A stretch of DNA of 64,000 bases, taken from assembly GCA_041661385.1 (NCBI GenBank), contig JBAZUP010000001.1:418560-482559 (forward strand), given 5' to 3'. A model generated the notes under the pieces. The model had not been told where the DNA came from and ran no database searches. It worked only from the letters and a program-made list of their open reading frames with translations. Made by a program: the position numbers and the translations under genes. Positions 18,591-63,517 of this stretch are shown here, in pieces. How positions within the stretch are numbered: the first letter of the stretch is position 1; each line of letters starts with the position of its first letter. The DNA comes from Patescibacteria group bacterium (GTDB lineage: Bacteria; Patescibacteriota; Patescibacteriia; Magasanikbacterales; GWA2-37-8).

Positions 18591-18600
18591 ATATACAAAA

Positions 18601-18768: not shown

Positions 18769-18869
18769 ACAGGTAGTATATATCAGCAGCAAAACCTGTC
18801 AAACCTTTATTTTTACACAAAAAAATCACTCCTGTGGATAAGAAGTGATTTTTGAAATTATTTGAATTA

Positions 18870-26698: not shown

Positions 26699-26705
26699 AT
26701 ATTAA

Positions 26706-28256: not shown

Positions 28257-28264
28257 AAAATAAT

Positions 28265-40208: not shown

Positions 40209-40290
40209 ATTCGAAATAAGTGAGGAAATATTTAAATGTATTAAATTATTTCCGAACTACAAAGAATTGAAGTTTAACTGGTTAATATTT

Positions 40291-47763: not shown

Positions 47764-49167
47764 TTATTTTTTCTTCACTTCAATATTTGCATCATCCAAT
47801 GCTTTTTTTGGTACTGCAGAAGGTGCGCCCATCATTAGGTCGCGGGCATCGCCGGTTTTTGGTACCGCGATAACTTCTCTGATATTCGGTTCATTTGCTA
47901 AAATTGCAATTACTCGGTCAATCCCGAGCGCAATACCGCCATGGGGAGGAGCGCCAAAATCAAATGCCTCGAGCATGTGACCAAACTGATCCTGAATCTG
48001 CTCATCCTTGAAACCCATAACCTCAAAAACTTTTTTCAAAGCTCCGGATTGGTGGTTGCGGATGCTTCCCCCGCCGGCCTCGAAACCATTTAAAGCAATA
48101 TCGTATTGGGTAGTTAAAATATCGCCGATATTTTCTTTTTTCATAAGCAACTCCATATGCTCCGGTTTTGGACTTGAAAATGGATTGTGGCTAAAGGTCC
48201 AGCCGCCTTCATCGGTTTTTTCAAAAAATGGAAAATCAACCACCCAACAAAAAGCGAGCAGATCCGGATCATTTTTATCTTTCCGAAGATCCGGTTTGTC
48301 GGATTTATATTTTTCCATCGCTTCCTGATAAGTCAAACGTGGAAAAGGCATTTCTTGAATTTTTTTATGCGGCGTTACTGTCTGAACAAGTTTAATCAGC
48401 ATTTCTTCAATTACCGCCATTACATCTTCGCGTTCAACAAACGACATTTCGAGGTCTAACTGAGTAAATTCCGGCTGCCGATCACCGCGCTGATCTTCAT
48501 CTCTAAAACATCTTGCTACTTGGAAATATCTTTCCATTCCCGCCACCATCATGAGCTGTTTAAACTGCTGAGGCGATTGCGGTAAGACATAAAACTGGCC
48601 TGGATAAGTGCGGGATGGCACCAAAAACTCCCGCGCCCCTTCAGGGGTACCCTTGGTCAAAATTGGCGTTTCAATTTCCAAAAAATTATCCGCCAATAAA
48701 TGCTGGCGCATAAATTGAGTTACTGCGTTGCGCAAAACAATATTTTTTTTCATTCTTTCTGAACGCAAATCTAGATATCGATATTTAAGACGCAGTTCTT
48801 CATTTATACCTTTAGTATCTTTATCTATTTCAAATGGCGGAGTTTGCGCAGTGTTCAAAACTGTTAAAGTCTTAATTAAAATTTCAACCGTGCCGGTTGG
48901 CATCTCGGTATTTTTTTGTTTTTCACCGCGCTCTTGCACCACACCCGTAATCGAAAGCACCCATTCCGGCCTCACCTCTTTTAGAGTTTCAACCGAAACG
49001 GGATCCATTTGACTTGGCACGCCGACGCACTGCAAAATTCCCCCGCGATCGCGCAGATCAAGAAAAACAATTTTACCCATATTTCGACGGGCGTTTATCC
49101 AACCTTTTATGGTTACTTCTGTACCTACCAATTTAGGTGTTTCCACCGACAAAGTTCGTTTTGACAT
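47764..49167 (-). CDS. aspS: Aspartate--tRNA ligase, short (archaeal/non-GAD) type
   Basis: N-terminal OB fold. Class II motifs 1-3, including FRDEDQRGDRQPEFTQLD and a C-terminal GGIALGIDR. 467 aa. Confidence 0.9.
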   Translation of the reverse strand: MSKRTLSVETPKLVGTEVTIKGWINARRNMGKIVFLDLRDRGGILQCVGVPSQMDPVSVETLKEVRPEWVLSITGVVQERGEKQKNTEMPTGTVEILIKTLTVLNTAQTPPFEIDKDTKGINEELRLKYRYLDLRSERMKKNIVLRNAVTQFMRQHLLADNFLEIETPILTKGTPEGAREFLVPSRTYPGQFYVLPQSPQQFKQLMMVAGMERYFQVARCFRDEDQRGDRQPEFTQLDLEMSFVEREDVMAVIEEMLIKLVQTVTPHKKIQEMPFPRLTYQEAMEKYKSDKPDLRKDKNDPDLLAFCWVVDFPFFEKTDEGGWTFSHNPFSSPKPEHMELLMKKENIGDILTTQYDIALNGFEAGGGSIRNHQSGALKKVFEVMGFKDEQIQDQFGHMLEAFDFGAPPHGGIALGIDRVIAILANEPNIREVIAVPKTGDARDLMMGAPSAVPKKALDDANIEVKKK

Positions 49168-49399
49168 ATATAAATAATCACATGAATTGCTGCCCTAGTT
49201 TAACAAACAAACCAAATCTTCGCAACCCCATAACCAAACAAAAAACCGCCCAAGCAACAGAGCGATTTTAATAGTAATTTTTTAGGGAAATGGAAATCAT
49301 TAGACACTATAAAAAAGCCGACTCATATTGTTATTTGATTGACTCGGGCGATATTTTCGCCTCCTCTTCGCTTTTGAAAATAGCGACCGGTATTTGGAA

Positions 49400-52333
49400 T
49401 TACTTACCTATTATTTCCTTCAAACCCCAAAAGGTTGAGCCGCCCTCGTGTATTAACGAATTAATTAAAGAATAAACACCCAACTTTGTTGATTTGTTTT
49501 TGTATAAAAAATCAAGTGTTTTAAACCACTCAGTATCAACATGAAATGGTTTTTTGTTTTTTCTAACCCCACCAATTAATAAGTGGAGGTTGGCGATTAC
49601 TAAGGTGTCATCAGGAGATACTTCTGCCAGTTTATTTATCATCATCGTCAGGCCATAATCCCAATCGAACGTACCACCAATTTTTTCTAACGTTAACCTA
49701 ACGGTTCTTGCAAGCCAAGCAATATCAAAAATCTCTTTTTCGTTTTCCAGCCAATAACCGAACTGGTTCAAGCACTTATTCTTGTTATTTTTTAAAACCC
49801 ACTCCCATATTTCATTTAATCGTTTTACGGCGAATGAATTTTTTTTAAGATGTTCTGTTGCTTGTGTATTCCTACCCGTAATAAACATTCTCCCAATAAA
49901 ACTGATAAAATTAGATTGCTTGTCAGTATTGTCTGCCCAAAATAATTTAAACAAGCGGTGATTAAAATCAAACTCCTCATAATGCATAAAGGCTAAAGCC
50001 ATATGCGTCGAGATACTCTCATCCGGGTCCCTAAAATATCTCCTTCCTTCATCCTTAATATTTAAATTGAGACCCTTCTCATAAAGTTCTTGAAATTTGG
50101 TCTCGAAAAACATTTCCTTATAGAGGTTATTAGATAGATAACCTTCCCACGCAGCTAAATACATGATCTCTTTTCCTATGGCCGATGTAAATACGCTAGG
50201 GATAAGAGCTAGTGCCCAATCTCTTTCCTGATAATATATTGCTGGTAAATAATGACCGAACATGAACATTATCGCTCTCGTTTTTTCATTTATTAAAACA
50301 TTTTCGTAGAGATCCTTTACATCCTTAGAAAGATTACTCTTTTTAGATTTACCAAACTTAACATCCAGTATTACAAAATTTATAAAAGCTTGAAATGCCT
50401 TGCCTCGCACTGAATTAATCGCCGTTGTATAAGGATCACCTATTTCATAATCATTATTACCAGGTGATTTAGTTCTAATTTTTGCGGTTTCGATAATTTC
50501 ATCTTTTGGAGCAGGGTCATTTTGCGAAAGCAAAAATTGGATAATGTAAAAAAAAACATCTCTTAATGCAGAAAAATCGCCGACTAATTCAATATTTCCA
50601 TCCTGTAATAGTACTCTCATTAGATTGGCCGTCGCACTATAAACTGCATTCCAATTTGCAAGCCAACCCCTACGTTTTCTCTCGTCCACTTCAAGAATCT
50701 CTTCAACGGGTCTTTTTGAAATTGCAATGGATAAATTCAGTACATTTAATAGACTTCCTCTGACAAACTTTTTTTCATTAATTAAGGAAGTTATTTTCTG
50801 AATAAATGCGTAGGTATAATGGGGATCAATATATTTGTGGTCGAAAAATAACTGAGCACTGTGAAGAAACTCCTCAGTTCTAACTTCAAATTCCTTCTTT
50901 AAACGCTCAGCCACTCCGTCACCATCAATCGGATGAAGAAAATCACCCTGACCATACTTCTCTACCAGATTCGCCGGAGCCCAATCTGATCTTAATAATT
51001 GAATAATTTCAGGAACAGTCTTAGACCAGTCAGTTTCGTTCCCGGGGGCTTTCGGTACAAGGGTACCGGAAACAATTTCACCTATAGTTGGCTGGGGATT
51101 GTAATTTTCATTTAGTTTTCCGAAGACCTCCTGCGATTTTATTTTCTCGTCTTCGGTAAGAAATGGAAATGCGGACGATAAAATATCACTACCGTGAATA
51201 TTTAGATCTTCTTCAGCTTTAAACCTATCAATTACCTTTGAAACATAAAGACGCTGATCAGCCGAGCTCAAGAATGAAAAACATGCTTGTATAAGCCTTT
51301 CGTATTCTGCGCCAAAAATTAAATCGCCTGGATCTTCGTAATCAAAAATTCGAAATAGCTCATTTCTAATATTAACCTTAAATATTTCTGGACATAATGA
51401 GAAAACATATAATTTGAGTCGCCATACAGTCCTGCTATCTGGGAGAATGTTAATATATTTACCATACATACCCATTACATAATCCTTGTTTGAAATATTT
51501 TTTTCAAAAACTTTTTTTAACAAAATTGTAACTGTTGCGGCAAGTTCTCGAACATCGTCCCTAAAAGAAATATGTTTTTGCCGATGGGAAGTTATAGTAA
51601 AAAAATCGACGTCGTAAAAATGGAATGAATCTTCTATAGAAAAAATTTTTCCTTTCTGCTTACTACCCAACAAAACTATCCTTGCAAAAACGTTAATAAC
51701 AACCGCAAGAGCTTTCTCGAGATAAGATGAGTCAATATTATTTATATAGCCAAATATATCAATGTGAGACAGGTCATTAAGATAAAAAGGATTATCGGAA
51801 AATCCCGGACCCTTATTATTTAGGTCTTCCTTTGTCCGAATTGAAAATATCGCATCAATTAAAATCAACAGATTTTCATTATCACCGGCTTTTGAAAGCG
51901 TTTCAAGCATTTTCTGATATTCAATTCCCCACCTGCTATAATTACCCATTAGAGTAACCCACTTTTCACTATAAATTTTCGGAACTAGTCGCGCTAATTG
52001 GTCTGGTGGTAATTTTTCGGCAATCCAAAGAAATTGATCCACAACCTCAGGATTAAAAGTATCTGGTGATATTGGAATTTGTAAAACTAAATCTACTACT
52101 TTTTCTGGTACTTTTTGCGCCATACGAACCAGATAATTAAGTTCTGGCATTCTGTACGAATATACTGATAAATTTTCTGCCTTACTTTTAATAGGATCCA
52201 TGAACCCATTTTCCCACAGCCAATCAAGCCAGCGTTCATCGGCTTGAGAATAAAAATATTGGTGAGAATCAAAATTCAGATCTATAATATCCTTAACCTT
52301 TTTTAGATCTAAATTTGATGGGTTAGAAGTCAT
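49400..52333 (-). CDS. Large hypothetical protein (977 aa), predominantly alpha-helical, no recognised domain
   Basis: Long uninterrupted ORF with no Walker, HExxH, nuclease or other catalytic signature that I can see. Noticeably more AT-rich than the flanking housekeeping genes. Forms a pair with the upstream 187-aa gene, separated by a 5-nt gap. Confidence 0.5.
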   Translation of the reverse strand: MTSNPSNLDLKKVKDIIDLNFDSHQYFYSQADERWLDWLWENGFMDPIKSKAENLSVYSYRMPELNYLVRMAQKVPEKVVDLVLQIPISPDTFNPEVVDQFLWIAEKLPPDQLARLVPKIYSEKWVTLMGNYSRWGIEYQKMLETLSKAGDNENLLILIDAIFSIRTKEDLNNKGPGFSDNPFYLNDLSHIDIFGYINNIDSSYLEKALAVVINVFARIVLLGSKQKGKIFSIEDSFHFYDVDFFTITSHRQKHISFRDDVRELAATVTILLKKVFEKNISNKDYVMGMYGKYINILPDSRTVWRLKLYVFSLCPEIFKVNIRNELFRIFDYEDPGDLIFGAEYERLIQACFSFLSSADQRLYVSKVIDRFKAEEDLNIHGSDILSSAFPFLTEDEKIKSQEVFGKLNENYNPQPTIGEIVSGTLVPKAPGNETDWSKTVPEIIQLLRSDWAPANLVEKYGQGDFLHPIDGDGVAERLKKEFEVRTEEFLHSAQLFFDHKYIDPHYTYAFIQKITSLINEKKFVRGSLLNVLNLSIAISKRPVEEILEVDERKRRGWLANWNAVYSATANLMRVLLQDGNIELVGDFSALRDVFFYIIQFLLSQNDPAPKDEIIETAKIRTKSPGNNDYEIGDPYTTAINSVRGKAFQAFINFVILDVKFGKSKKSNLSKDVKDLYENVLINEKTRAIMFMFGHYLPAIYYQERDWALALIPSVFTSAIGKEIMYLAAWEGYLSNNLYKEMFFETKFQELYEKGLNLNIKDEGRRYFRDPDESISTHMALAFMHYEEFDFNHRLFKLFWADNTDKQSNFISFIGRMFITGRNTQATEHLKKNSFAVKRLNEIWEWVLKNNKNKCLNQFGYWLENEKEIFDIAWLARTVRLTLEKIGGTFDWDYGLTMMINKLAEVSPDDTLVIANLHLLIGGVRKNKKPFHVDTEWFKTLDFLYKNKSTKLGVYSLINSLIHEGGSTFWGLKEIIGK

Positions 52334-52338
52334 ATTTT

Positions 52339-52902
52339 TTAACTATTTGTTGAAGTATCAACTTTAGCAGTTTCGGGCACATTTTTTAAAATGCGATCAA
52401 TTTCTAGATGGATATCAATCTGATGCGTTAAAGCGCTAAGCATTACATTTTCAAAATCTGAAACTAAGTTTTCGAAGTCTTTCTCACTAAATGAAGCATA
52501 ATCAGTGTTGTTTTTTTCCACATTTCCATGATGTGCAAGACCGTTTAATTTCCCATATATAATACCCATATCCCGAATGGTTATGGGAGTCGCGTGAACT
52601 GATCCAAATTTCTTTAGAGCCTCTGCTTTATTTGTTGGGATATCCTCCACATTAGGACTATAAAATGGATACAGAATTTCACGAAGAGAGTTTGCGGCCT
52701 GTGCCATCCAATCCGGATTGGCTTTTAAATTTTTTTGTGACACAAAAAAAGCACCCCTGAGCATATCAGAAGGCTTTGTTTTCAACCTGTATAAATCATG
52801 GAGATCATCTAACCGTCTACACAGGTCTTCTTGCTTGGGACTTAAAGCTACAGGCGATAAATCAAATTCGCCTACAGCTTTCGGCAGCTCTGAATTAACC
52901 AT
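52339..52902 (-). CDS. Hypothetical protein (187 aa) co-oriented with and directly upstream of the 977-aa gene
   Basis: ORF with no recognised motif. Tight operonic spacing. Confidence 0.45.
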   Translation of the reverse strand: MVNSELPKAVGEFDLSPVALSPKQEDLCRRLDDLHDLYRLKTKPSDMLRGAFFVSQKNLKANPDWMAQAANSLREILYPFYSPNVEDIPTNKAEALKKFGSVHATPITIRDMGIIYGKLNGLAHHGNVEKNNTDYASFSEKDFENLVSDFENVMLSALTHQIDIHLEIDRILKNVPETAKVDTSTNS

Positions 52903-53117
52903 AAATTAACATTGTCATGAACCAAGCTTACACCTTTGTCTGCAATAAATAAAGACTTCCGATGTGCTCAGACTACATATGATCTGGCTAATTCAGACCT
53001 ATTAAATTTGCACTAAGACAGTGCACGCTATAGGTTTTGCGAAGCTTAGTTATCTACAGGTCCAAACATATAAAAAACAAACCACTTTTGAGAGGCCTGT
53101 TAAATTAATAATGTTTC

Positions 53118-53285
53118 TTAACCCACGATCTCATTAATTGATTGATCAACAATAATTTGCGGATTCTCTTTTATCAAATCGAATATGAATTGTTTTAAAG
53201 TTTCCTTTTTGAACGTCAACGCAATAATTTTTAGATAATTCGTCTTTCCATCATCTTCATATACAAGTATCAACGATTTATACAT
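53118..53285 (-). CDS. Possible small protein (55 aa) downstream of the 92-aa membrane protein gene
   Basis: Manual ORF MYKSLILVYEDDGKTNYLKIIALTFKKETLKQFIFDLIKENPQIIVDQSINEIVG. No homology known to me. Could be spurious. Confidence 0.2.
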   Translation of the reverse strand: MYKSLILVYEDDGKTNYLKIIALTFKKETLKQFIFDLIKENPQIIVDQSINEIVG

Positions 53286-53293
53286 TCCACCAA

Positions 53294-53572
53294 TTAAACC
53301 TTTTTGTATTTTACTATTTTTTTTATTTCCACGATTCTTCTTATTACAAACAAATGGACATATTTAACTCCATTATTTTCTATAATTAGATATGCCCCTT
53401 TTGTTAAAGCTAGGATATATGCAACTGCAAAACCAAACATCAGCAGAGAAAATCCTAGGGCATCTCTAACTCCATTTGTATTTGTGATTACCGAAATGTT
53501 AATCACCCAGAACAACAAAAGAACAATAATTGTTATTTTTATTTCATTAGTCAGACTCGACTTATATTTCAT
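53294..53572 (-). CDS. Small three-TM membrane protein (immunity-like cassette member)
   Basis: 92 aa, strongly hydrophobic. Located in the array downstream of the RHS toxin genes. Confidence 0.35.
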   Translation of the reverse strand: MKYKSSLTNEIKITIIVLLLFWVINISVITNTNGVRDALGFSLLMFGFAVAYILALTKGAYLIIENNGVKYVHLFVIRRIVEIKKIVKYKKV

Positions 53573-53589
53573 AATGGGTTTTGTACAGC

Positions 53590-54399
53590 TTATTGTTTCT
53601 GTACAGAATTTCTAGCAACTTCAACAAGATATGCTTTATAACCTAAGCTCCAATAAGCCAACAGCCAAATAAATCCTGTTAAACCAAACCAGCCGGCCAC
53701 AAACATTATCACAATTTTATCTAAGGTCAACAGAATGCCAGTTAGAATTATAAATATTTTATTTCCGCGATAAATTACTACTCCTAGAATAAAGTAAATA
53801 ATCAATGAAACCACTAAAAAAAGAGTTATGGGCGTTTTTAACAAAGCAACATAACCTACGGTTATAATAACGGACAAAAATATCACCATAGCACTTTGTT
53901 TTCGATATGATTTCCAAACAGACAAAGAATTGTAATTTTTTATTTGGAACTCCTTTTCTTCTTGTGACATTTTGAATGTCCCGGATTTAATCGGGCTTTG
54001 TTCACTTCCTACCTGGTTAAATCTGCCTTTAAGATGTTTATGGAAGAAAATCCAAACAATCAGAATAAGCATTAACTCGAATATATTAAAAGAAATATAT
54101 CCATTGTGACCAGCAAAAAAGTTCGCCAGGGTGTCAAAAACAATTACCAAAACAGAATAACCAAAAACAATATTTGTCCAAATTAATATCTTTTCAACCA
54201 TTTTTACCAGCTTATAAAGATAAAAACCTGATATAATTAAATCTATTGTATGCACGACCCCAGCAGCAACATTTGTAAGAACATTTCCATAGAAATCTGC
54301 ACCTCTCATCAAACCCGATATACCAAGAAGATCAATAAGAATATTCAAACCCAATAGAACTAAGATAAACCAGATAAATGTAGATTTTTTTTTATTCAT
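53590..54399 (-). CDS. Multi-pass membrane protein (269 aa), candidate immunity protein for the orphan RHS toxin
   Basis: About six TM helices. Immediately downstream of the orphan RHS-CT cassette and the 80-aa protein. Confidence 0.4.
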   Translation of the reverse strand: MNKKKSTFIWFILVLLGLNILIDLLGISGLMRGADFYGNVLTNVAAGVVHTIDLIISGFYLYKLVKMVEKILIWTNIVFGYSVLVIVFDTLANFFAGHNGYISFNIFELMLILIVWIFFHKHLKGRFNQVGSEQSPIKSGTFKMSQEEKEFQIKNYNSLSVWKSYRKQSAMVIFLSVIITVGYVALLKTPITLFLVVSLIIYFILGVVIYRGNKIFIILTGILLTLDKIVIMFVAGWFGLTGFIWLLAYWSLGYKAYLVEVARNSVQKQ

Positions 54400-54403
54400 A
54401 AAA

Positions 54404-54646
54404 TTAGCTTCTTGTTTGTATATAGGTTGCTATTAAAGTAAGCACAATGATGAACACTCCAATAAACATTATTATCCATTTGGTAATCCTGTCTTTATCC
54501 GAGCTGTCCAACCCACCCACGGAACCAGCGCCAAATGGGCCGAACCACCACGCTACTTTTTTAGCTACCTTAATTACACTTTCAAGCTGCGATGCGAAAA
54601 TGATTAAAACACCTAGTGCAAGGACTGAAAGATTTATAAGCTTCAT
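54404..54646 (-). CDS. Small two-TM membrane protein (80 aa), candidate immunity protein
   Basis: Overlaps the stop of the orphan RHS-CT ORF by 4 nt (translational coupling). Hydrophobic. Confidence 0.4.
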   Translation of the reverse strand: MKLINLSVLALGVLIIFASQLESVIKVAKKVAWWFGPFGAGSVGGLDSSDKDRITKWIIMFIGVFIIVLTLIATYIQTRS

Positions 54647-55683
54647 AATTTGGTCTTTTTTGGACTTACAATTTTTGACTCAACATGATCAATTATGCTT
54701 TTTCCAGTGGTAAGCTGACTAGCCTTATCCAGAGTATTATAAATTATCTTACCAGTTTTTTCAGTGAGATATTTAAGAGTTGATTGACCCACTCCAGCAG
54801 ATTTAGCGTTCCGATATATTTTATATGCAGGCGATACTTTGGAAACATACGTGGGAACGTCTTTTGCAGAGAAGAACAATAGATCCCCTCCTGTTGCAGC
54901 AGAATCAAACAACGTATTATCTTTCAAAATTGAATTCGAGAACTCGCGATATGGTCCCTGCGTGTTTGAACGAGATGGTTCCCGATCCATGAAGGAACCA
55001 ACAATGTTTTCAGCTGCATTTGATGAATCGGCAAATGCACTATCTAAGTTGCCTAAAGATCCTGCTGTTAGCAAGGCGGCTGCCTGAGGCTGTCCTACGG
55101 CTAATGCTCCCCCAGCGAAGATTGCTTGTGGTACGGCTGCAAGTCCGTCTAAGACGGTTTTTCCAACTTGAAGCGCTCCCACACCAAATGTTTTTGCAGC
55201 GAACTCACCCGCTTCATCAACGTAATTCAAGGGGTTGTTTAGAGCATAGGAATAGCTATTCATATGCTGGGGGTTAGAGAGATAACTTTGTAGATCCATT
55301 TTTGTATACCTTCTAATCTGATCAGAGTCTCCAACTGCCAGAAATGCTGGATCCTGGGATAGGAGCTGACATCTCGAACCATCCTGATATCGAGCTCCCA
55401 TATAGTTCAAACCGGTATCCATGTCGTACTCATGTCCAGTAAATTTCTTTGGTTCGTTTAACCCGTTTGTCTGTTCATCAATCCGTATACCACCATATGG
55501 ATAGTAATCTGTCAACTCCGCAATGGTCCCGGTCACTGTGGTCATAATATTTGACCCACCTAAGTGGTCAGTATGAACGTTATATACACTAGAACTAGCA
55601 TTAGACCCTTTTACCGTAGCGACAAGCGTATCACCAAGATAAAATTGCTTCATGGTTGTTGTGCCACTGACCGTGTATGCCAT
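54643..55683 (-). CDS. Orphan RHS repeat-associated core domain plus alternative C-terminal toxin domain (displaced rhs-CT cassette)
   Basis: HTDHLGGSNIMTTVTG...DYYPYGGIRIDE...NYMGARYQDGSRCQLLSQDP...NSYSYALNNPLNYVDEAGEF is the canonical RHS core (xxHxDHLGS...YYPFG...ARYYDP...R..S.DP...N.Y.Y..NNP...D). It is followed by a ~190-aa unrelated C-terminal region with a Gly/Ala-rich stretch (FGVGALQVGK...AIFAGGALAVG). Confidence 0.7.
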   Translation of the reverse strand: MAYTVSGTTTMKQFYLGDTLVATVKGSNASSSVYNVHTDHLGGSNIMTTVTGTIAELTDYYPYGGIRIDEQTNGLNEPKKFTGHEYDMDTGLNYMGARYQDGSRCQLLSQDPAFLAVGDSDQIRRYTKMDLQSYLSNPQHMNSYSYALNNPLNYVDEAGEFAAKTFGVGALQVGKTVLDGLAAVPQAIFAGGALAVGQPQAAALLTAGSLGNLDSAFADSSNAAENIVGSFMDREPSRSNTQGPYREFSNSILKDNTLFDSAATGGDLLFFSAKDVPTYVSKVSPAYKIYRNAKSAGVGQSTLKYLTEKTGKIIYNTLDKASQLTTGKSIIDHVESKIVSPKKTKL

Positions 55684-55696
55684 AGCTCGAATAATA

Positions 55697-56044
55697 CTAG
55701 TCGATCAACCACCCAAGATAATAAAACTGAACAAATATCATTATTACCTGCATTAAAAACAATAATGACCCGACTAATGCTGACTTAATTTTATTATATT
55801 GCCTAAGCTCATTTACGGTTAATATAATATTTACTCCAACTAAAATCAAAAGTGGATAATAAATTATGAAATTTTCTATTTGGCTACGCCAAGGCCCGTG
55901 ATTAATGCCATTTGCATACCAAACTGATTCGGGTGGTAGAAATATATAATACGATTCAAACCAATATATTATAAATGGTAAAAGCCATGCGACTAAAGTT
56001 AAGATATATAAAATTAAATCTTGCCGCTTAAATTTGGTTAGCAT
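55697..56044 (-). CDS. Membrane protein (115 aa), candidate cognate immunity protein of the main RHS toxin
   Basis: Starts 2 nt after the stop of the giant RHS gene. Three TM helices with periplasm-facing loops. Confidence 0.45.
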   Translation of the reverse strand: MLTKFKRQDLILYILTLVAWLLPFIIYWFESYYIFLPPESVWYANGINHGPWRSQIENFIIYYPLLILVGVNIILTVNELRQYNKIKSALVGSLLFLMQVIMIFVQFYYLGWLID

Positions 56045-56045
56045 A

Positions 56046-59000
56046 TTATTTCTTAGTTGCTTTTATAATAGATTTGATTATCGACACGGCATTCTTAATA
56101 TCCGTAACAATATTTCTGTTATAATTTGGGTTATTTAATTGTGCTTGTACCCTCTGCCCATAAGATGTGACGCCTTTGGCTGGGCTATAGTTATATCTAC
56201 TCGCAGTGAGTGCCGTACTATCGGACCGACCTTGCTCTTTTGCAATATTACGAACTCCGGCATCGATGTTTTTTGCTGGATCGCGAGCTAGCTCTGCTTT
56301 GTTATAACCATATTCTTTTCCGATCTTGCCACTTACCTGCATTACCCCAACACCGCCACTACCAACATTTGGAAATAACTGCTCACGACCAAGTACTTCA
56401 TCCGGCTGTAAGTGCGATTGCTCTTCGTACATAATCGCATTAGTAAGATTGGAACTAACTCCATATTTAGTACTTGCATCATTAACAGTTGTTTGATTTT
56501 GCTGAATTGCTTCCAACGCGCGCTCATGACCACCAAAAACTTCTCCAGTTTTCATCATAAACCCACTAACACCAGAATACCCGCTCCAGTCGTAAAATCC
56601 ATACCACCAAAATCTACCATCTGGATCTTTATTTACAACTGGATTATTACCGGCATATGCATACGCATTCATAGCTTGCGGATTTAATAGTGCATCTTTA
56701 CCATCCGAAGTTAGTCCGATTTCCCCAAATACTGGATCTTGTGACACAAACTGCCCGCGTGCTGAATCATAATATCTCGCATTAAGATATGACAAACTAT
56801 TATCATCTGTAAACTGACCGATAAATTTGCGCTTATCGCTAGCAGTACCGGCATTTATTCGCTCGGCACCGTATGGATAATAATCGACCGCCTGAATAAT
56901 ATTTGCACCTGAATCCGTAATAATATTTGTGCTTCCAAGTTGGTCGGAATGAACAAAATGTGTTGAAGATACACTACCGTTTTTCTCAACTGTTGCCAAG
57001 AGATCACTACCAACGAATATATATTTTGTGGATGTGTTTCCTACTATACTGTAGTATCTATTGGAATATGTTGTGGTTGTTCCACCCGTTCCAAGTTTAC
57101 GATACATCACCCTGTTACCGTCTTGGTCATACAGGTAGGTTGAAGTAACCCTGTTTGCAGTGGATGTTGCGAGTTGATTGCGATAGTCCCAAGTATACAG
57201 TATGCTCGCCGAAGACGATGTCATGTTGCCATTCTTGTCATAGCTAAATGTTGTTGTGCCGACAGCTGTTACCGCATCCGGATTGGCATAACTAGAACCC
57301 TGGTAACCCAAATAGCTATAATCCCCAACGTCACTGCGATTAGTGATATTTCCTAGTGCATCATAAGCATAGGTTTGAGTGTAATCACCACTTTTTACAG
57401 CATCGGTGACTTTAGCCGAGAGCAAACGGTTCAAATTATCATAGCTGTAGATATTAAGCTTGCTGGTACTGGTTGAAGAATTATCTAAAATTTGAGTAAT
57501 GTTACCAACCTTGTCGTAAGCGTAACTCAAGTTCTGTATAGCATTGCCTGGTGCATAGAAATAATCACGGCCATTGGTCCAAGCCCCCTCATTACCAAGG
57601 TTATCCCAGAATTTGATACGCCAGAAGTATTTCATGCCATTATTTGGAATTGCTGGGCCAGCATAGGCAATATTTGGTGTTCTTGCACCGACAGCAATGC
57701 TAGGAGAAAGTGTTTGTGAGCCAGAATCCCAGAGTGGCGCGGAGAAATCGGCCCCGCTTTGAGTAACTTGTATTCTATAATTAGTCGCTGAGGTGGAAGT
57801 GTTAGCTGATTCATACAGCGCGCTGAATTGTGGGGTAGAAGTAATCTTGGTCGCCTGCTTTGGCCAGAAATGAACATTATCAAACCAGATTGTATTCGTT
57901 GACGAACCTAAATAGAACATCAAACGAACATTTGAATCACCCTGTGATGGCGTAATTTCAAATTGGTAAGTCTTCCATGCTGGATTTAACAGGAATGTGT
58001 TATACGAAAGATCTGAATATGCATCATGGTTCTGGTTAATTGCGACCGCTTCAGTGGTACTAACGGTTCCTTTGGCATCAAAGGATAAAATATAGGTCGT
58101 TGAAGTCGCGACTGCAGTATTTTGCGCAAGTTGCACCTGCCAGGCTTGCCCACCATAATTAACTATTGTTTTATTTGAGCAGCCGCCATCGGTTGTACTG
58201 GTAGTACAATCAACTGAATTTGTTGACTGGCCTGTGCCACCGTTTGACCAAGCATACCAATTGTTCATGCTCGTTTCAAAACTTTGGTTCTTGATCATAT
58301 TCAAGCCGTCTGGAATAACTTCCACGTCATCAAACCAAATGGTACTGGTGCTAGCACCTAGATAATAGAATACCCGTGCCAGTTCATCTGTACCATTACT
58401 GGTGAATGAATATGTATATTGCTTCCAATTTGGTGTAATACTGACACCAGTTGCAAGGCCATAATCCGACCAGGGGCTATGGTCTTGATTAATACCAAAG
58501 GTAATCGTTGTAGTAGCGTTGGCTTTGGCCCTAAACTTCACAGTGTAATTCATTCCATTATCTACGCGTAAATCTTGCCAGAGCTGTGAATCCCAAACAT
58601 TGCCGCCAGTCGGTACAGTGACCTGTTGTGAACAATTACCAGTATATGAAGCAGTGCAATCAAGTGTGGCAGTGCCTGTTGCAGACCAATACTTCCAAAC
58701 GCTAAGCAATGCTCCCTCAAAACTATCATCATAAATTATGCTTTGAGTAATAGCCAGACCGTTTACAGTCATATTCCGTGGAGCAGTCGGACCACCAGCT
58801 ACACCCGAAGAAGAAGTATTGATTAGATAATATGCACCCGGCATTAGTCCCTCACCATAGTAACCAACGCTGCTGGTTGGCAACGACGTATTTTTGTTAA
58901 TGAGACGATAGAGCCGATTCGCATCATATGTAAATGTAGTTGTGACTCCAGATGGATATGTGATTTGTGCAGTCTGACCGAGGGGTGAATAAATAATATT

Positions 59001-62000
59001 GCTTACCAGTGTCTTGAAACTACCGTCACTGTTTTCCTTGTAATTCACTGCCTGCGGTCGGTTCGCTGAATTATACACATACTGCACTTGTGAGTTATCC
59101 GGGTAGGTGATGTTGGTGTTATTTCCTAGTCGATCATAACTGTATTGAGTTACATAATTAACATTATTTATCTTCTTCGTTTCTTGCTTCAAATGTCCAT
59201 TACCGTCATAAACATTATTAACAATCGCGCCAGTTGAAGTGACCGAACAGAATTTACCAACACCATAAGTGCACCTATCATAACCATAAGTAACTTCAGT
59301 ACCGCTCTTGCCGGTATAATCTTCTGTTAATACTCGATTTAACTTGTCGTAAGTATAATTAACGGTTTGCTTATTTGGATCAACTTTTTGAGTTAGGTTG
59401 CCATTATTATCATAAACAAAAGTTGAGGTACCAAAAGTAGTATCACCTGAAGAGTGTAGATCTTCCACACCAACACGTCTACCAAGACCATCATAAGCAA
59501 AACTACGGACATTACTCAATGAATCTGTGACGCTGATCAAATTTCCAAGTCCGTTGTATGTGTAATTTGTGGTATAGGTGCTACCGTTATTTATTTCCTC
59601 AACTTTAACTAAATTGTCGTAGGCATCTTTATATAGATTCTTACTATTTCCATTAGCATCAGTTGCGGTCAGTTTCCAACGGTCATAAGAGTTGGTGGAA
59701 GTTCCAACCGAATCAATTGTTACAACAAGACGTAGCAGAGGATCATATAAATATGTTTTATATAATGACTGAGTGGTTGTCGCAGTTGTTGAAGCTGAAC
59801 CAGATGAGAAATACGGTAGAGATTCTTTTTCAATCGGACCACGCGATCCATATACGAAATCGGTGACTGAGTAATTACCCGAATCATCAACTCTTTGTCG
59901 TTTCTGAATTGTTCGGTCTAATCCATCGGTATACGCATAACTATCGGTAGTGGTTGCGTTATTTAAATAATCAGTTTGCTTAATTTGCCAACCAATTGAT
60001 TGTGGCGTGTACAAATATTCTGTTGATGTAACCAAGGTTGATGTGGTAGTGAGATCTGGTTTTAAAATCGCAACTACCCTATCTAAACCGTCAAATACTG
60101 TCTGATACTTAAGGTTATTTTGGTCGATTACCTGTTTAGGTTTACCATTTGAATAGTCATAAGACTTTATAACCTTGTAAGACAACGCATCGGTTGTGGT
60201 TGTTGGGTAAAGGTTATAGCTGTCATAGTTGTAGGTCGTTGTATTGCCCAAAGCATCGATATCACTGGTTACAAGGCCATAAGAATTGTATATTTTTTGA
60301 TTATTTATATAAGTCGTGCTGGTTTGCCATGATTCCTGCTTGGTCATATTTCCTTTTAAAACTACGCCGATGGTCGAGGTGTCATAATAATATCTGTCCT
60401 GTTTTACTTTAAGAGTGTTATAGTCGGAAACTAAAACTGATGACGGTAAACCAAGAATGTATGAGCTGGTATTAATTGCAAAGGTGTAATCAGTCGTGTA
60501 CGAATCTGTTCCCGTATCACTAAATGTGCCATCGTCATTCCCACTTACCTCGCCCCAATCTATTTGTTGCAACAAATTTCCGGTGCTGGTCGTGTTATAT
60601 GTGAAACTTTGAGCTTTATCTTTATGGGAAGCATTACCATCATATGTATAATCGACACTTTGCGTTTCAAAAACAAATCGCGAACTAGTACTTAAAACAG
60701 CTTCATCCCATTTATTAATATTTTTTGTAAAAAGACTTCCGTTTATATCGTATGTTTCGACACGATATGGCTTGTTGATTTTATAATAGCTATCATTATA
60801 TTCCCCATGCGATGAGTCGCTTGTATCACCCTGGTGATAATAGGTGCTTACATAATTCCCAAAACTGTCCGTCTTGGTAACTTTGTTAAATCCAGCAAAT
60901 TTACGATCTAAAGTGTTACCATAATATAATTTTCCACCTTCATATTTGAACGAGGATGAGTTAGTTGTACCCAAACCATCAAGGTTCCGAATTTGTAAAA
61001 CCGTATTTAAAACCATTGGCAAATTTGGGTTAGCTAAGTTTGAGCCAGTTCTATAAAAAGTAGTGGCCTGATAATCGACCAGGGTTATCCCGCCTGAGCT
61101 ATGTTTTACAGAAATCAATAAATCAGATGCTCTTTTGGTATTATTTAAATAAACATAATTTTGAATATAATCCTGTCTATACGCATTCCAACCATTTTTT
61201 AAAATATCTGGCAATCCATCTCCATTAATATCCATTATTCTTACACCTAGATCGTAAGTAGAGTTTGCAAAATTTTGCGGAGAACTCCACGAATTATCTG
61301 ATTGAAAACCAGTTCCAGTGTTTATATAACCACCGTTTTCCGGATTATCACTAGTATTATAATTAATTAATCCCCGGACTATAATGTCGTCAAGTCCATC
61401 ACCATTAATATCAGAAATTCTCGCACCGTAATCGACAGATTGATCCCATGGACCCATTGGATTATATATTTTAACCGGCTGACTAATAGAACTATCGCAC
61501 ACCCAACCGTGGCCATTGTTTAAACAAATACTTTTTTGATAACCTCCAGATGTATTGGTGCCTTGAATAATATCAACCAAACCATCACCATTTACATCGC
61601 CAAAAACGGTACCGTTGTCAATTACTGGAAGTGACCACTGTGGATCTGGAGAAACAAACAAACTACCATTATTTATGGCTACATAAGCAACCCAATGAAT
61701 AGAATCCGAACGGTATATATCAAGCAGACCATCCCCGTTTAAATCTACAAATCTAGTACCCAGGTCCCAACTATTATTTACCATATCGACAACCGGAAAC
61801 GAACCAGGAGGAGAAAAATTACTATCTATTGGTCCAAAATTTGTACCAGTGTTTGAGAAAGCCCATGAAGTTGGGGTTTGCTGAGCAATCCAAGACCCTA
61901 TGATATCGCTTAGTCCGTCACCATTATAATCAGCCACTCTTGATCCCATGTCGAAATTTGAAACACCAGAAGCATCATAAAATGCTCTAAACGAACCAAA

Positions 62001-63398
62001 AGTAGTGCTAGTAGTCCAAGTCCCATCACCATTATTAAAATAGACTAAACTTGTTGATGCTGCACCACCTGAAGATTGCCAAGAAGAAAGCACATCCTGA
62101 AGACCATCTCCGTTCGCATCTCCGAATTGATTACATACATTAATTCCTGCCTTAGTTAACCAGTTTCCATCTTGCGTCCAACCTGGAGTCGAAGTTGAAT
62201 AACTAAAAGTGGTAGTAGGTATCCTGGTTACAACCCCTAGATCATCCTGACCCTGCTCAGAAATCGTTGATAATAATGACCTATAGCCATTAGCCCCCGT
62301 TATATATTGCAAAAAATATTTTCTCAACCAACTCCCACTAATATTTACATCAATTTCATAAATTCTATAATTTGAAACTACCTTAAACCCCGTTTTATAT
62401 TGTTGCAGAGCATCACTGCGACTTTCTCTTAAGAAATTGACGGTGAATATCCCCTGCGTTGTGCTATTGACGGTATAGGTAATAGCCGAGGGATAAATTT
62501 GACCGCCATCTTTAAAATATTCGTATTTAATAAAATTATCATTCGTATCTCGTACTTCCTGTAGCATCCATTTATAAATATGACTTGTACTACTGGCGTC
62601 AAACTGCTGTGTTGACGTGTCCACTCCAAACTTATATATTGTTCCTTTTTTATCAGTTACAACCCAAGTACTTGAAGAATATGTGTATTTTAGAAAATCG
62701 CCATTTTCAACTTTTGCTTGATAAGTGGTGGTATTTATCTGAACTAGTTCATCACTTAAACTTGAAAAAAATGTCGAGGTTGCCGAATATAACCGGTCTA
62801 CCCCATATCGATTAATTAATTGAATATACGGAATATTTACACTCCAACCATAGCCAAAAACACTGGAATTGTCCGTGTCTTGACTGTTATAACGAAGTTT
62901 TATATCCGGTTGGAAACCGTTTCTTCCTGGCGGTATAATTATTGGATATTCATTAATAAAGGCACCCGAGCTTAAATCTACCCCTGGTAAATGAAATGTA
63001 TTTACCGGCTCAAGAAAACTCGCTGACACTGCCGAACCAGAAGTAAGCGTATTTTGTGTTATTGATTTTTTACTTACAGTGTTATCCTTAGCCGGCAAAC
63101 TATCTAAAGTTGATGGTTCGGTCGCCACATTATCAGGCACAATTGTCGTGGAATCAACGGGAGCTGTTGGTGTAATTTCCACAACTGGATCAGGATTAAT
63201 AATAGTAGTTTCAATTGGCTGGGGAGTTAGATCAGGCAAAGACACCAACGTATCTACACTTACTGTGAGTGAATCAGGTGTCGTTATTACAGGCTCATCA
63301 ACAGCCAAGACATTGGGTGCTGATAAAATAAAAAACGAAGTTAGCGCAACTGCGAATAACTTCGTCGTAATAAAACGATATCGTTTGTTTCCCTCCAT
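56046..63398 (-). CDS. Giant secreted RHS/YD-repeat polymorphic toxin, Tc-toxin (TcB-TcC)/teneurin-like: signal peptide, SpvB domain, FG-GAP-type propeller repeats, tandem CBM-like modules, YD repeats, RHS core, C-terminal lytic-transglycosylase-like toxin domain
   Basis: The track ORF is 56046..63506 with a TTG start inside a terminator hairpin, so the in-frame ATG near 63398 (MEGNKRYRF... signal peptide ...SAPNVLA) is the more likely start. SpvB motif IIIPPGRNGFQPDIKLRYNSQDTDNSSVFGYGWSVNIPYI. Six or more D-x-N-G-D-G-L-x-D repeats. YD repeats (YTYNGLGN, YAYDGLGR, YDNNGN, YSYDRLGN, YAYDKVGN, YLYDQDGN and others). RHS core ...VHSDQLGSTNIITD...YYPYGAE...ARYYDSARGQFVSQDP...AYAGNNPVVNKDPDGRF. C-terminal ~190 aa carry EEQS ... 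GVMQV ... RYNYSP, resembling SLT motifs I-III. Confidence 0.85.
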   Translation of the reverse strand: MEGNKRYRFITTKLFAVALTSFFILSAPNVLAVDEPVITTPDSLTVSVDTLVSLPDLTPQPIETTIINPDPVVEITPTAPVDSTTIVPDNVATEPSTLDSLPAKDNTVSKKSITQNTLTSGSAVSASFLEPVNTFHLPGVDLSSGAFINEYPIIIPPGRNGFQPDIKLRYNSQDTDNSSVFGYGWSVNIPYIQLINRYGVDRLYSATSTFFSSLSDELVQINTTTYQAKVENGDFLKYTYSSSTWVVTDKKGTIYKFGVDTSTQQFDASSTSHIYKWMLQEVRDTNDNFIKYEYFKDGGQIYPSAITYTVNSTTQGIFTVNFLRESRSDALQQYKTGFKVVSNYRIYEIDVNISGSWLRKYFLQYITGANGYRSLLSTISEQGQDDLGVVTRIPTTTFSYSTSTPGWTQDGNWLTKAGINVCNQFGDANGDGLQDVLSSWQSSGGAASTSLVYFNNGDGTWTTSTTFGSFRAFYDASGVSNFDMGSRVADYNGDGLSDIIGSWIAQQTPTSWAFSNTGTNFGPIDSNFSPPGSFPVVDMVNNSWDLGTRFVDLNGDGLLDIYRSDSIHWVAYVAINNGSLFVSPDPQWSLPVIDNGTVFGDVNGDGLVDIIQGTNTSGGYQKSICLNNGHGWVCDSSISQPVKIYNPMGPWDQSVDYGARISDINGDGLDDIIVRGLINYNTSDNPENGGYINTGTGFQSDNSWSSPQNFANSTYDLGVRIMDINGDGLPDILKNGWNAYRQDYIQNYVYLNNTKRASDLLISVKHSSGGITLVDYQATTFYRTGSNLANPNLPMVLNTVLQIRNLDGLGTTNSSSFKYEGGKLYYGNTLDRKFAGFNKVTKTDSFGNYVSTYYHQGDTSDSSHGEYNDSYYKINKPYRVETYDINGSLFTKNINKWDEAVLSTSSRFVFETQSVDYTYDGNASHKDKAQSFTYNTTSTGNLLQQIDWGEVSGNDDGTFSDTGTDSYTTDYTFAINTSSYILGLPSSVLVSDYNTLKVKQDRYYYDTSTIGVVLKGNMTKQESWQTSTTYINNQKIYNSYGLVTSDIDALGNTTTYNYDSYNLYPTTTTDALSYKVIKSYDYSNGKPKQVIDQNNLKYQTVFDGLDRVVAILKPDLTTTSTLVTSTEYLYTPQSIGWQIKQTDYLNNATTTDSYAYTDGLDRTIQKRQRVDDSGNYSVTDFVYGSRGPIEKESLPYFSSGSASTTATTTQSLYKTYLYDPLLRLVVTIDSVGTSTNSYDRWKLTATDANGNSKNLYKDAYDNLVKVEEINNGSTYTTNYTYNGLGNLISVTDSLSNVRSFAYDGLGRRVGVEDLHSSGDTTFGTSTFVYDNNGNLTQKVDPNKQTVNYTYDKLNRVLTEDYTGKSGTEVTYGYDRCTYGVGKFCSVTSTGAIVNNVYDGNGHLKQETKKINNVNYVTQYSYDRLGNNTNITYPDNSQVQYVYNSANRPQAVNYKENSDGSFKTLVSNIIYSPLGQTAQITYPSGVTTTFTYDANRLYRLINKNTSLPTSSVGYYGEGLMPGAYYLINTSSSGVAGGPTAPRNMTVNGLAITQSIIYDDSFEGALLSVWKYWSATGTATLDCTASYTGNCSQQVTVPTGGNVWDSQLWQDLRVDNGMNYTVKFRAKANATTTITFGINQDHSPWSDYGLATGVSITPNWKQYTYSFTSNGTDELARVFYYLGASTSTIWFDDVEVIPDGLNMIKNQSFETSMNNWYAWSNGGTGQSTNSVDCTTSTTDGGCSNKTIVNYGGQAWQVQLAQNTAVATSTTYILSFDAKGTVSTTEAVAINQNHDAYSDLSYNTFLLNPAWKTYQFEITPSQGDSNVRLMFYLGSSTNTIWFDNVHFWPKQATKITSTPQFSALYESANTSTSATNYRIQVTQSGADFSAPLWDSGSQTLSPSIAVGARTPNIAYAGPAIPNNGMKYFWRIKFWDNLGNEGAWTNGRDYFYAPGNAIQNLSYAYDKVGNITQILDNSSTSTSKLNIYSYDNLNRLLSAKVTDAVKSGDYTQTYAYDALGNITNRSDVGDYSYLGYQGSSYANPDAVTAVGTTTFSYDKNGNMTSSSASILYTWDYRNQLATSTANRVTSTYLYDQDGNRVMYRKLGTGGTTTTYSNRYYSIVGNTSTKYIFVGSDLLATVEKNGSVSSTHFVHSDQLGSTNIITDSGANIIQAVDYYPYGAERINAGTASDKRKFIGQFTDDNSLSYLNARYYDSARGQFVSQDPVFGEIGLTSDGKDALLNPQAMNAYAYAGNNPVVNKDPDGRFWWYGFYDWSGYSGVSGFMMKTGEVFGGHERALEAIQQNQTTVNDASTKYGVSSNLTNAIMYEEQSHLQPDEVLGREQLFPNVGSGGVGVMQVSGKIGKEYGYNKAELARDPAKNIDAGVRNIAKEQGRSDSTALTASRYNYSPAKGVTSYGQRVQAQLNNPNYNRNIVTDIKNAVSIIKSIIKATKK

Positions 63399-63492
63399 AT
63401 ATTTAATAAATTTTCTTGTTCTAGATGAACAAATAACTGACCATAATATATACCCTTTTAAAACAACCTTGCAACTTAGGCTGTGGATAACA

Positions 63493-63517
63493 AAAAACCG
63501 CCCCAAAAGGCGGTTTT
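63493..63517 (-). terminator. Terminator of the upstream 145-aa gene
   Basis: Minus-strand hairpin aaccgcc-tttt-ggggcggtt followed by a U-run. Confidence 0.55.

Follow-up and report, generated by a model that had tools for sequence, protein, structure and literature searches.

The DNA analysed here, referred to as the window, is a stretch of 64,000 nucleotides (nt) from a bacterium of the Patescibacteria, or Candidate Phyla Radiation (CPR) (contig JBAZUP010000001.1, positions 418,560 to 482,559), and it contains, on the minus strand towards the end of the stretch, a giant gene of the RHS/YD class which is followed by a series of much smaller genes. Four of these genes make up the core of the locus: the giant gene, a gene for a small membrane protein, an "orphan" module in which the end of an RHS shell is joined to a different C-terminal domain (CT), and a second gene for a small membrane protein. 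They are given below with their positions in the window and, where amino acids (aa) are counted, with the lengths of their products.

56046 to 63398, minus strand: giant RHS gene, a probable polymorphic toxin (2450 aa plus stop, ATG start; product identical to the database protein P0010)
55697 to 56044, minus strand: 115-aa protein with three predicted transmembrane (TM) segments, candidate immunity protein for the CT of the giant protein (TM scan; recurrence of the neighbourhood)
54643 to 55683, minus strand: orphan module of 346 aa with its own ATG (model TIGR03696, 2.3e-15)
54404 to 54646, minus strand: 80-aa protein (p80) with two TM segments, candidate immunity protein for the orphan CT (TM scan; neighbour of the protein P0144)

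The locus is probably an RHS/YD polymorphic-toxin system of a monoderm, small-genome member of the Patescibacteria, which combines a wall-cutting cargo with an immunity gene and with the displaced tip of an earlier form of the toxin. A first-pass annotation of the window, made from the letters alone, had described a gene of about 7.4 kb for a secreted YD/RHS protein, a small membrane protein encoded directly 3' of it, and an RHS-core ORF (open reading frame) with a different toxin and without a repeat shell, and all three are present as described. Its attribution of the DNA to a CPR-like, reduced genome also holds, since NCBI assigns the neighbouring proteins to a metagenome-assembled genome (MAG) of Candidatus Magasanikbacteria or Patescibacteria, the longest contig with these proteins being 778,751 bp.

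The extent of the giant gene requires a correction. The ORF as called mechanically runs on the minus strand from a TTG at 63506 to position 56046, and the first-pass annotation had placed the start at about 63517. The TTG can be ruled out, because it lies within the terminator hairpin of the upstream gene (63494 to 63517); the gene is therefore taken to start at the ATG at 63398, as it does in the databases, and all aa positions of the giant protein given here are counted from this codon. An assembly artefact or a pseudogene was considered and can likewise be ruled out, since a separate Logan assembly (run SRR6484324) is 100% identical to the window across 12,905 nt (48655 to 61559) and the same 2450-aa protein, P0010, is present intact in NCBI, JGI and ENA. 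Comparison of the ORF with the Logan assembly and with the database proteins, which agree with one another, reveals no sign of the frameshifts that the first-pass annotation had named as a reason for giving up its interpretation.

The domains of the giant protein, scored with Pfam and NCBIfam models, are arranged from the N-terminus to the C-terminus as follows, with the terminator that precedes the gene placed last.

63303 to 63398, minus strand: Sec-type signal peptide or signal anchor, aa 1-32, ending in APNVLA (sole hydrophobic segment; putative cleavage)
62979 to 63302, minus strand: Pro/Thr-rich linker, aa 33 to about 140 (read from the sequence)
62706 to 62966, minus strand: SpvB or TcB-N-terminal-like domain, best stretch aa 145-231 (Pfam PF03534, 1.1e-14)
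61197 to 62120, minus strand: FG-GAP/VCBS beta-propeller, about aa 427-734 (FG-GAP_3 in four stretches, 8.9e-16; FG-GAP, 1.5e-8)
58902 to 61031, minus strand: first part of the RHS/YD shell, about aa 790-1499 (Pfam RHS_repeat, TIGR01643)
57531 to 58901, minus strand: variable insert, aa 1500-1956, within the shell (two CBM_4_9 domains, aa 1564-1846, and one Ig_Rha78A_N domain by Pfam)
56883 to 57530, minus strand: last repeats of the shell, aa 1957-2172, which hold a recombination breakpoint at about aa 2118 (window position about 57047)
56616 to 56882, minus strand: Rhs-associated core, aa 2173-2261 (TIGR03696, 1.4e-14)
56049 to 56615, minus strand: C-terminal toxin domain, aa 2262-2450, 189 aa, SLT/GH23-like (Pfam SLT; profile match to MltC)
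63494 to 63517, minus strand: intrinsic terminator of the upstream gene (stem of 10 bp followed by a T-run; includes the TTG)

The first 32 residues consist of a basic stretch and the only hydrophobic segment in the protein. The RHS repeats score 3.3e-29 with PF05593 and 1.3e-15 with TIGR01643, and the inserted domains score 7e-26 (CBM_4_9) and 7e-7 (Ig_Rha78A_N), with a further match at 2.9e-13 to the CBM4 of a laminarinase in the PDB. The insertion itself, 456 aa in the giant protein, is a variable feature of the family, in that homologues have between 14 and 1141 aa between the same two anchor motifs (14 to 17 aa corresponding to no insert), and the Pfam lists of relatives place CBM, Ig and LamG-type domains at this site. 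In the Rhs core both of the conserved aspartates are found by alignment (..SQDP.. and ..KDPDGRF), and the core is presumed, by analogy, to be a site of autoproteolysis; the role of the two residues is taken from D651 and D674 of TccC3 (PMC7861908). All of the models which the first-pass annotation expected to match (RHS repeats, Rhs core, SpvB, FG-GAP, CBM_4_9 and SLT) do match, and the matches are specific, which disposes of its proviso that they might turn out to be low-complexity artefacts. As far as sequence can tell, the locus has every feature by which an RHS polymorphic-toxin system would be recognized.

The fold of the C-terminal half was predicted with an AlphaFold (AF2) model that covers aa 1262-2450 and uses 31 homologues. 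The RHS parts are modelled as a beta-spiral with a predicted local distance difference test (pLDDT) score of 65 to 94 (80 to 94 for aa 1262 to about 1506), and the two CBMs and the Ig domain are modelled as distinct globular domains, the insert giving matches to tandem CBM22 folds. When the modelled half is compared with the PDB by Foldseek, matches are obtained to the Rhs effectors of type VI secretion systems (T6SS; 8uxt, 4e-23, and 7q97) and to teneurins and teneurin-like proteins (6FB3 and 9IFO, E values of 1e-20 to 1e-18), and the highest template modelling scores (TM-scores), 0.55, are those to the TcC chains of YenBC (5kis_B and 4igl_B); TcdB2-TccC3 is also matched. The comparison of the protein with the TcB-TcC ("BC") cocoon of Tc toxins and with teneurins, proposed in the first-pass annotation, is thus right at the level of the fold for the half that was modelled.

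The domain beyond the core supplies the predicted activity of the toxin. It matches the Pfam SLT model (PF01464) at 1.2e-5, with 25.3 bits against a cut-off of 21.3, and a profile made from the CT and six of its homologues matches MltC (9vi7) with an E value of 5.5e-8. In this match the second Glu of the invariant sequence YEEQSH aligns with the Glu of the E-S motif of MltC, and the invariant positions of the SLT-CT family include E63/E64 (EEQ.H), GGVG.MQV and YN. Because the profile matches MltC and both the catalytic Glu and the motifs are invariant, the cargo is taken to be a GH23-type enzyme, that is, a putative lytic transglycosylase which would cleave the glycan strands of peptidoglycan.

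The distinguishing property of a polymorphic toxin is that the C-terminal domain varies from one homologue to another when the remainder of the protein is conserved, and this pattern is found here. The closest relatives of the giant protein, P0011 (60% identity) and P0012 (44%), align with it from end to end up to aa 2261, where the core ends in KDPDGRF, and beyond this residue the CT of the giant protein is unrelated to theirs; the homology of P0013 ends at the same place. P0011 and P0012 have a different CT in common, and the genes downstream of them, of 146 and 139 aa, form a homologous pair, so that the survey of relatives for swapped CT/immunity pairs which the first-pass annotation recommended does find such pairs at the same junction. 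The CTs of 112 close homologues (those with a recognisable core end among the 120 best) range from 126 to 231 aa in length, and BLAST groups them into 63 clusters; the precomputed Pfam lists of the relatives include nuclease, peptidase and other toxin families. Such exchange of CTs between homologues, as read from these alignments, is the behaviour that defines polymorphic toxins. As a separate observation, an RHS gene with an SLT-like CT (P0063; L020, 87-1610) adjoins a gene for a large serine recombinase with Resolvase and Recombinase domains, which hints that some RHS loci sit on mobile elements.

The gene for the 115-aa membrane protein begins 1 nt past the stop codon of the giant gene. 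A word-indexed search for homologues of the 115-aa protein returned only the protein itself, and its homologues were found instead by way of the neighbours of SLT CTs, with the aid of a local hidden Markov model (HMM). The pairing of an SLT CT with the 115-aa gene recurs at five other loci, in some cases as remnants. In L008 a homologue with 34% identity (E value 4e-18) overlaps the end of an orphan composed of a core and an SLT domain; in L012 a homologue lies directly 3' of an SLT CT (3e-26 to a three-member HMM); on the contig of P0140 a 115-aa gene, recognized by its length and position, lies directly 3' of an SLT CT; in L006, L007 and L010, from Candidatus Vogelbacteria, a homologue is preceded on its 5' side by a decayed remnant of an SLT C-terminus; and in L005 an SLT CT is followed by a remnant of 27 aa which ends in AWTID, the C-terminus of the 115-aa family. 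A scan with the giant protein of species-representative genomes, a set to which the genome of the window does not belong, returned one locus, on a contig of Candidatus Taylorbacteria, with a decayed core/SLT remnant. The 115-aa family has a conserved loop, LPxPxxW[YF]..NHGPWR, which the positive-inside rule would place outside the cell.

Other subclades of SLT CTs are accompanied by other small proteins: a family of 161 aa with a single TM segment is found in L006 and L014 (39% mutual identity), and the SLT CTs of L013 and L021 are followed by single-TM proteins of 114 and 105 aa. The small proteins beside SLT CTs are membrane-anchored, and protection outside the cytoplasm would suit a wall-directed toxin. 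Genes for MreB and a D-Ala-D-Ala carboxypeptidase are present in the window, which indicates that the organism builds a peptidoglycan wall, and since the producer has peptidoglycan, an immunity gene is needed. On the strength of this neighbourhood, the 115-aa protein is likely to be the cognate immunity protein for the SLT CT.

Two further observations concern individual loci of this set. In L008, a metagenome contig, the core+SLT "orphan" (1013-1993) starts with what appears to be a signal peptide of its own (MHKILLVLLFLPNLVFA...), and a type IV pilin-like gene lies 3' of it; some shell-less modules may be self-secreted. In L005 the truncated core+SLT module and the immunity remnant (10001-10946) have a guanine-plus-cytosine (GC) content of 46% inside a contig of 55-62% GC which bears methylmalonyl-CoA mutase and other genes that are not CPR-like, which suggests either transfer out of the CPR or a chimeric assembly.

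The orphan module records an event in the history of the locus which can be reconstructed from the pattern of identities. The parts of the orphan, and the DNA which is proposed to have arrived in the event, are the following.

55204 to 55683, minus strand: orphan aa 1-160, last repeat and Rhs core, resembling the core of P0011
54646 to 55203, minus strand: orphan aa 161-346, a different CT, all-helical and Gly/Ala-rich, without a Pfam model
55684 to 57047, minus strand: putative incoming cassette, made up of the last repeat, the core, the SLT CT and the 115-aa gene (delimited by the identity breakpoint)

Residues 3-166 of the orphan align with the last repeat and core of the giant protein (40% identity, E value 7e-30) and the two proteins diverge beyond, the core ending in KDPDGRF in the giant protein and in VDEAGEF in the orphan. 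The orphan is nonetheless closer to P0011 than to its own neighbour, since aa 3-159 are 62% identical to the equivalent part of P0011 compared with 40% to the core of the giant protein. The identity between the giant protein and P0011 in turn falls abruptly, from 69.6% (112/161) over aa 1957-2117 to 42.4% (61/144) over aa 2118-2261 (Fisher p = 2e-6), and the first residues of the orphan align exactly at this drop. Because the core of the orphan matches the core of P0011 better than the core of the giant protein does, the orphan is taken to be the former tip of the gene, and the simplest reading of the alignments is that it represents the ancestral 3' end, which would have come to lie 3' of the gene after a foreign cassette had entered it by recombination near aa 2118. 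The displaced-CT interpretation of the first-pass annotation is supported by this recombination footprint. The 5' part of the orphan has no significant DNA similarity to the core region of the giant gene, and the orphan, instead of being a cassette ready to be swapped in, is either a relic or a module expressed on its own.

Similar orphan arrays are found in L003, L006 and the contig of P0144. The locus of P0011, L003, contains (17771-19034) an orphan in which part of an Rhs core is fused to an HNH nuclease; a DUF4265 protein comes next, and genes with NERD domains lie on both sides of the RHS gene of L003.

The CT of the orphan (aa 161-346) belongs to a family of its own. When 1.84 billion representative proteins are searched exhaustively, 11 relatives are found, among which this CT caps two full-length RHS proteins with different scaffolds, P0145 (SpvB, FG-GAP and RHS) and P0147 (CARDB, CarboxypepD_reg, DUF6531 and RHS); the remaining relatives are short orphans made up of a core and the CT. 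The orphan CT is regarded as a genuine family of toxin tips because its homologues cap full-length RHS proteins. A comparison of its trimmed alignment with metagenomes gave 138 pattern matches, none of which was confirmed. With low confidence, it may be membrane-active, given its Gly/Ala-rich helices and its two-TM partner.

This partner is p80, the start of which overlaps the stop of the orphan by 4 nt (ATGA). In the array of P0144 the order of genes is RHS, Imm26, orphan, a 110-aa gene, P0144 and a 79-aa gene, and the 79-aa ORF after P0144, which also has two TM segments, has a KDRI motif in common with p80. The alignment of p80 with the 79-aa protein scores 58, compared with 15.6 +/- 5.8 for shuffled sequences (z = 7.4), and none of 1000 shuffles reaches 58. 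On this evidence p80 is probably, with moderate confidence, the cognate immunity protein of the orphan CT.

A side observation applies to several CTs of these CPR loci. In the HNH orphan of L003, in aa 161-230 of the orphan described here and in L008 (1-492), CTs which are unrelated to one another start after the core with a hydrophobic stretch rich in Gly and Ala (for example ...GGALAVG... and ...AGTGGLATP...AAGAAITSHGIGVAG...), perhaps a linker or translocation segment that these CTs have in common and not part of each toxin.

The mechanism that these components suggest begins with export of the 2450-aa protein, which would proceed through Sec. The SpvB domain, the FG-GAP propeller and the RHS repeats would enclose the 189-aa CT in a cocoon of the BC type, and the Rhs core would free the CT by aspartyl autoproteolysis. 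The pair of CBM_4_9 domains and the Ig domain, displayed on the outside, would most likely dock the cocoon on the wall glycans of a neighbouring cell, where the freed SLT/MltC-like cargo, once released, would cut peptidoglycan strands at the outer face of the target membrane. The producer would be shielded at its own membrane surface by the co-transcribed 115-aa protein with its three TM segments.

Comparison with known systems helps to define which parts of this mechanism have precedents. The locus resembles the Rhs/CdiA loci of Escherichia coli, Dickeya and Salmonella (Poole et al. 2011, PMC3150448) in its RHS repeats, in the DPxG-type end of the core, in the variable CT, in the position of an immunity gene directly 3', in orphans that start in the last repeat or core and have a different CT and immunity gene, and in the evidence that an incoming cassette has displaced an old tip. 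It differs from them in that neither PAAR nor DUF4150 is found in the giant protein and no T6SS genes are found among the window ORFs scanned; there is no PAAR, VgrG or T6SS context, and the protein has a Sec signal and belongs to a monoderm. In addition, the N-terminal half of the giant protein is TcB-like (SpvB and FG-GAP) and the orphan has its own ATG. A last difference is that the core DNA of the orphan lacks significant similarity to the resident gene, the proteins being 40% identical, so that reactivation of the orphan by homologous recombination is unlikely.

WapA of Bacillus subtilis, which is paired with WapI, is a Sec-dependent YD-repeat toxin of contact-dependent inhibition in a Gram-positive bacterium. 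Like the giant protein, it is a Sec-exported surface RHS/YD protein of a monoderm with a polymorphic CT and an adjacent immunity gene, and by analogy it would be the best functional counterpart for the route of delivery. It differs in that WapA has neither an SpvB/FG-GAP half nor a CBM insert and its known CTs are cytoplasmic tRNases. For the activity of the cargo, there is a parallel with the glycoside-hydrolase effectors of the Tse3/Tsi3 type, which are T6SS effectors that attack peptidoglycan and are countered by periplasmic immunity proteins. The cleavage of glycan strands as an antibacterial activity and the placement of immunity outside the cytoplasm would be alike in the two cases; unlike the cargo described here, these effectors are not encapsulated by RHS repeats, and their immunity proteins are soluble or lipoproteins and do not have three TM segments.

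The architecture is closest to that of the Tc BC sub-complex (YenB/YenC2, 4IGL and 5KIS; TcdB2-TccC3, 4O9X), with which the giant protein has in common the SpvB domain, a beta-propeller, the RHS repeats, the core, a hypervariable cargo, both catalytic aspartates and, for the modelled half, the best TM-scores. It differs from the sub-complex in being a single polypeptide with a signal peptide, in the CBM and Ig domains in its shell, in the immunity genes that accompany it (Tc loci have none; PMC7861908) and in a predicted cargo that is directed at peptidoglycan. Teneurins and bacterial teneurin-like proteins have the same YD shell fold, an extracellular location and an N-terminal hydrophobic segment; the CT of the giant protein, unlike theirs, is of the polymorphic kind and has an immunity gene as its partner, and no NHL propeller, EGF, FN-plug or Tox-GHH domain is found in it by Pfam. 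Within the CPR, a "possible secreted toxin" of 2487 aa with RHS/YD repeats has been described in Saccharibacteria (Starr et al. 2018, PMC6031116), which likewise has an immunity neighbour and carbohydrate-binding domains. It comes from a different CPR lineage and has PA14 and galactose-binding accessory domains, and it is given one sentence in that paper, which does not treat an orphan, displacement or the identity of the CT.

Several results weigh against the interpretation of the locus as a wall-cutting polymorphic toxin with a displaced tip, or against particular parts of it. The SLT score of the single sequence barely exceeds the Pfam cut-off. The prediction of the shell and plug that the first-pass annotation called for bears out a beta-spiral for the RHS shell, and is of low confidence for the Rhs core and the CT, which are modelled at a pLDDT below 50. 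TcdB_toxin_midN (PF12256), which is present in P0011 and P0012, is not found in the giant protein at E < 0.01. A polytopic inhibitor with three TM segments would be unusual for a peptidoglycan hydrolase, such proteins being commoner as partners of membrane-active toxins, and the gene 3' of the intact SLT orphan of L006 is a different one, of 161 aa. For the orphan, the AF2 model of the CT is all-helical at a pLDDT of 42 and the profile finds no match in the PDB; no clear p80-like gene lies 3' of the full-length carrier P0145; and the possibility that the orphan stands ready to re-enter the giant gene by recombination had to be dropped, given the want of DNA similarity noted above. Finally, we know of no release mechanism for BC-type cocoons that lack a TcA partner.

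If the locus is a toxin, it must also be asked against which cells it is directed. The hyper-diversity of CTs and the orphan arrays favour competition, and the wall-directed cargo and the glycan binders leave room for the breaching of a host. In the host-directed alternative, which is unlikely, the locus would serve an epibiotic or parasitic CPR cell against its host: the CBMs would bind the wall polysaccharide of the host and the cargo would open the host peptidoglycan, so as to allow attachment, the insertion of pili or the uptake of nutrients, and the immunity protein would do no more than prevent self-damage. The Patescibacteria do include obligate epibionts (PMC13622651), the cargo is predicted to target the wall and not the cytoplasm, and the glycan-binding modules lie within the shell and vary among relatives; an immunity gene would be required in either case, the producer having peptidoglycan. 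On the other hand, the 63 CT clusters among 112 proteins, the many nuclease-type CT families in the Pfam lists of relatives and the orphan CT/immunity arrays are a signature of antagonism between kin and competitors; no host is known for the lineage, and no connection of the locus with genes for pili or attachment is seen in the window.

A bolder proposal, which we consider distinctly doubtful, is that the protein is a self-sufficient BC cocoon, independent of TcA, with glycan binders that are exchangeable at a single hot-spot of the shell, which needs only Sec and releases its wall enzyme at another cell, as a contact weapon or as a tool for entry into a host. If this were true, such cocoons would play a major part in how ultra-small epibionts select their partners and break into them, and the three-TM "HGPWR" protein would stand for a new class of lytic-transglycosylase inhibitors that are embedded in the membrane.

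It is very improbable that the protein is not a toxin at all, but a surface protein such as a teneurin-like adhesin or a remodeller of the producer's own wall (with the SLT domain making room for pili or secretion machines, for example), with downstream membrane proteins that are unrelated to it. SLT domains commonly occur as autolysins with housekeeping roles, adhesion is a function of YD shells of the teneurin type, and the 269-, 92- and 55-aa ORFs described below have no toxin link; but the SLT domain stands exactly at the cargo position, past an Rhs core with both catalytic aspartates, the closest relatives have unrelated domains in its place, and it travels with the 115-aa gene and recurs in core+SLT orphans in other RHS arrays. 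Least probable of all, and close to dismissal, is the view that the protein is the fused TcB-TcC component of a true ABC (Tc) toxin, with TcA encoded elsewhere and the cargo injected into eukaryotic cells: SpvB, FG-GAP propeller, RHS and core follow one another as in TcB-TcC, TcC chains give the highest TM-scores and natural B-C fusions exist (PMC7861908), but no TcA-like ORF is found in the 64-kb window (the ORFs above 900 aa being the giant gene, valyl-tRNA synthetase and a 977-aa protein without a family match), Tc loci lack immunity genes (PMC7861908) and a conserved CT/immunity pair is present here, a peptidoglycan-cleaving cargo has no target in eukaryotes, and the giant protein has its own Sec signal.

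The interpretation as an RHS polymorphic-toxin locus also places it in a large family. The giant protein has at least 605 homologues, and among the best matches that bear a source name most are from Patescibacteria and have the same architecture. The impression conveyed by the first-pass annotation, that such an investment is striking for a tiny genome, is thus not sustained, as it is not unusual in the CPR, where the similar toxin of Saccharibacteria is also found (PMC6031116). Existing pipelines label the giant protein as an "RHS repeat-associated protein" or a "carbohydrate binding domain-containing protein", and in the literature on RHS toxins of the CPR only passing mentions, and no systematic study, were found.

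The locus is a good example of a type of weapon that is already known, not a new type, and the general picture of RHS systems is unchanged by it. Its importance lies in the fact that the interactions of CPR bacteria with their neighbours are largely unknown, and that the family which it represents, of RHS toxins that resemble BC cocoons and are presumably exported by Sec, is very large and has hardly been studied. It provides a testable example of a candidate wall-directed SLT cargo in an RHS shell together with a small conserved membrane protein as candidate immunity protein, and of an uncharacterised helical CT family with a two-TM partner, as well as a clear footprint of CT displacement by what appears to be the insertion of a cassette. 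The details that merit follow-up are the SLT cargo with its three-TM partner, the new CT family and the clean displacement footprint.

Further small ORFs are one of 55 aa and the two listed here, which lie beyond p80.

53590 to 54399, minus strand: 269-aa protein with about seven TM segments (TM scan)
53294 to 53572, minus strand: 92-aa protein with two TM segments (TM scan)

The first-pass annotation had included more small membrane proteins in the toxin array. Such proteins are present, and a link to the toxins is borne out for the 115-aa and 80-aa proteins and not for the 269-, 92- and 55-aa ORFs, which have no match in Pfam, NCBIfam or PADLOC and no homologue in any of the loci fetched. 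The 269-aa protein is possibly an orphan immunity gene, or it may be unrelated. Directly 3' of the toxin array (49400-52902, minus strand) lie genes for proteins of 187 and 977 aa, without a signal peptide and with a GC content of 0.35-0.38, each of which is the sole member of its 90%-identity cluster. Searches with the 80-, 187- and 977-aa ORFs in Pfam, NCBIfam and PADLOC gave no matches.

The other genes of the window are ordinary housekeeping genes, among them those for RRF, MreB, four aminoacyl-tRNA synthetases, glycolysis, ScpAB and the D-Ala-D-Ala carboxypeptidase. A leader of ribosomal protein L10 (Rfam RF00557, 66 bits), also ordinary, lies upstream of the rplJ region (15868-15999, minus strand). 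Two tandem paralogues of cofactor-independent phosphoglycerate mutase, of 528 and 520 aa, lie beside the genes for enolase and phosphoglycerate kinase (38622-41853, minus strand), a duplication that is unexpected in a reduced genome. A block of low GC content (0.35-0.37; 24489-29077, minus strand) contains in tandem genes for a nitroreductase-family protein, a ThiF/E1-like protein, a 516-aa protein without a family match and an S-adenosylmethionine methyltransferase, a combination which resembles a peptide-modification cluster of the type that makes ribosomally synthesized and post-translationally modified peptides (RiPP-like), such as thiazole/oxazole-modified microcins (TOMM).

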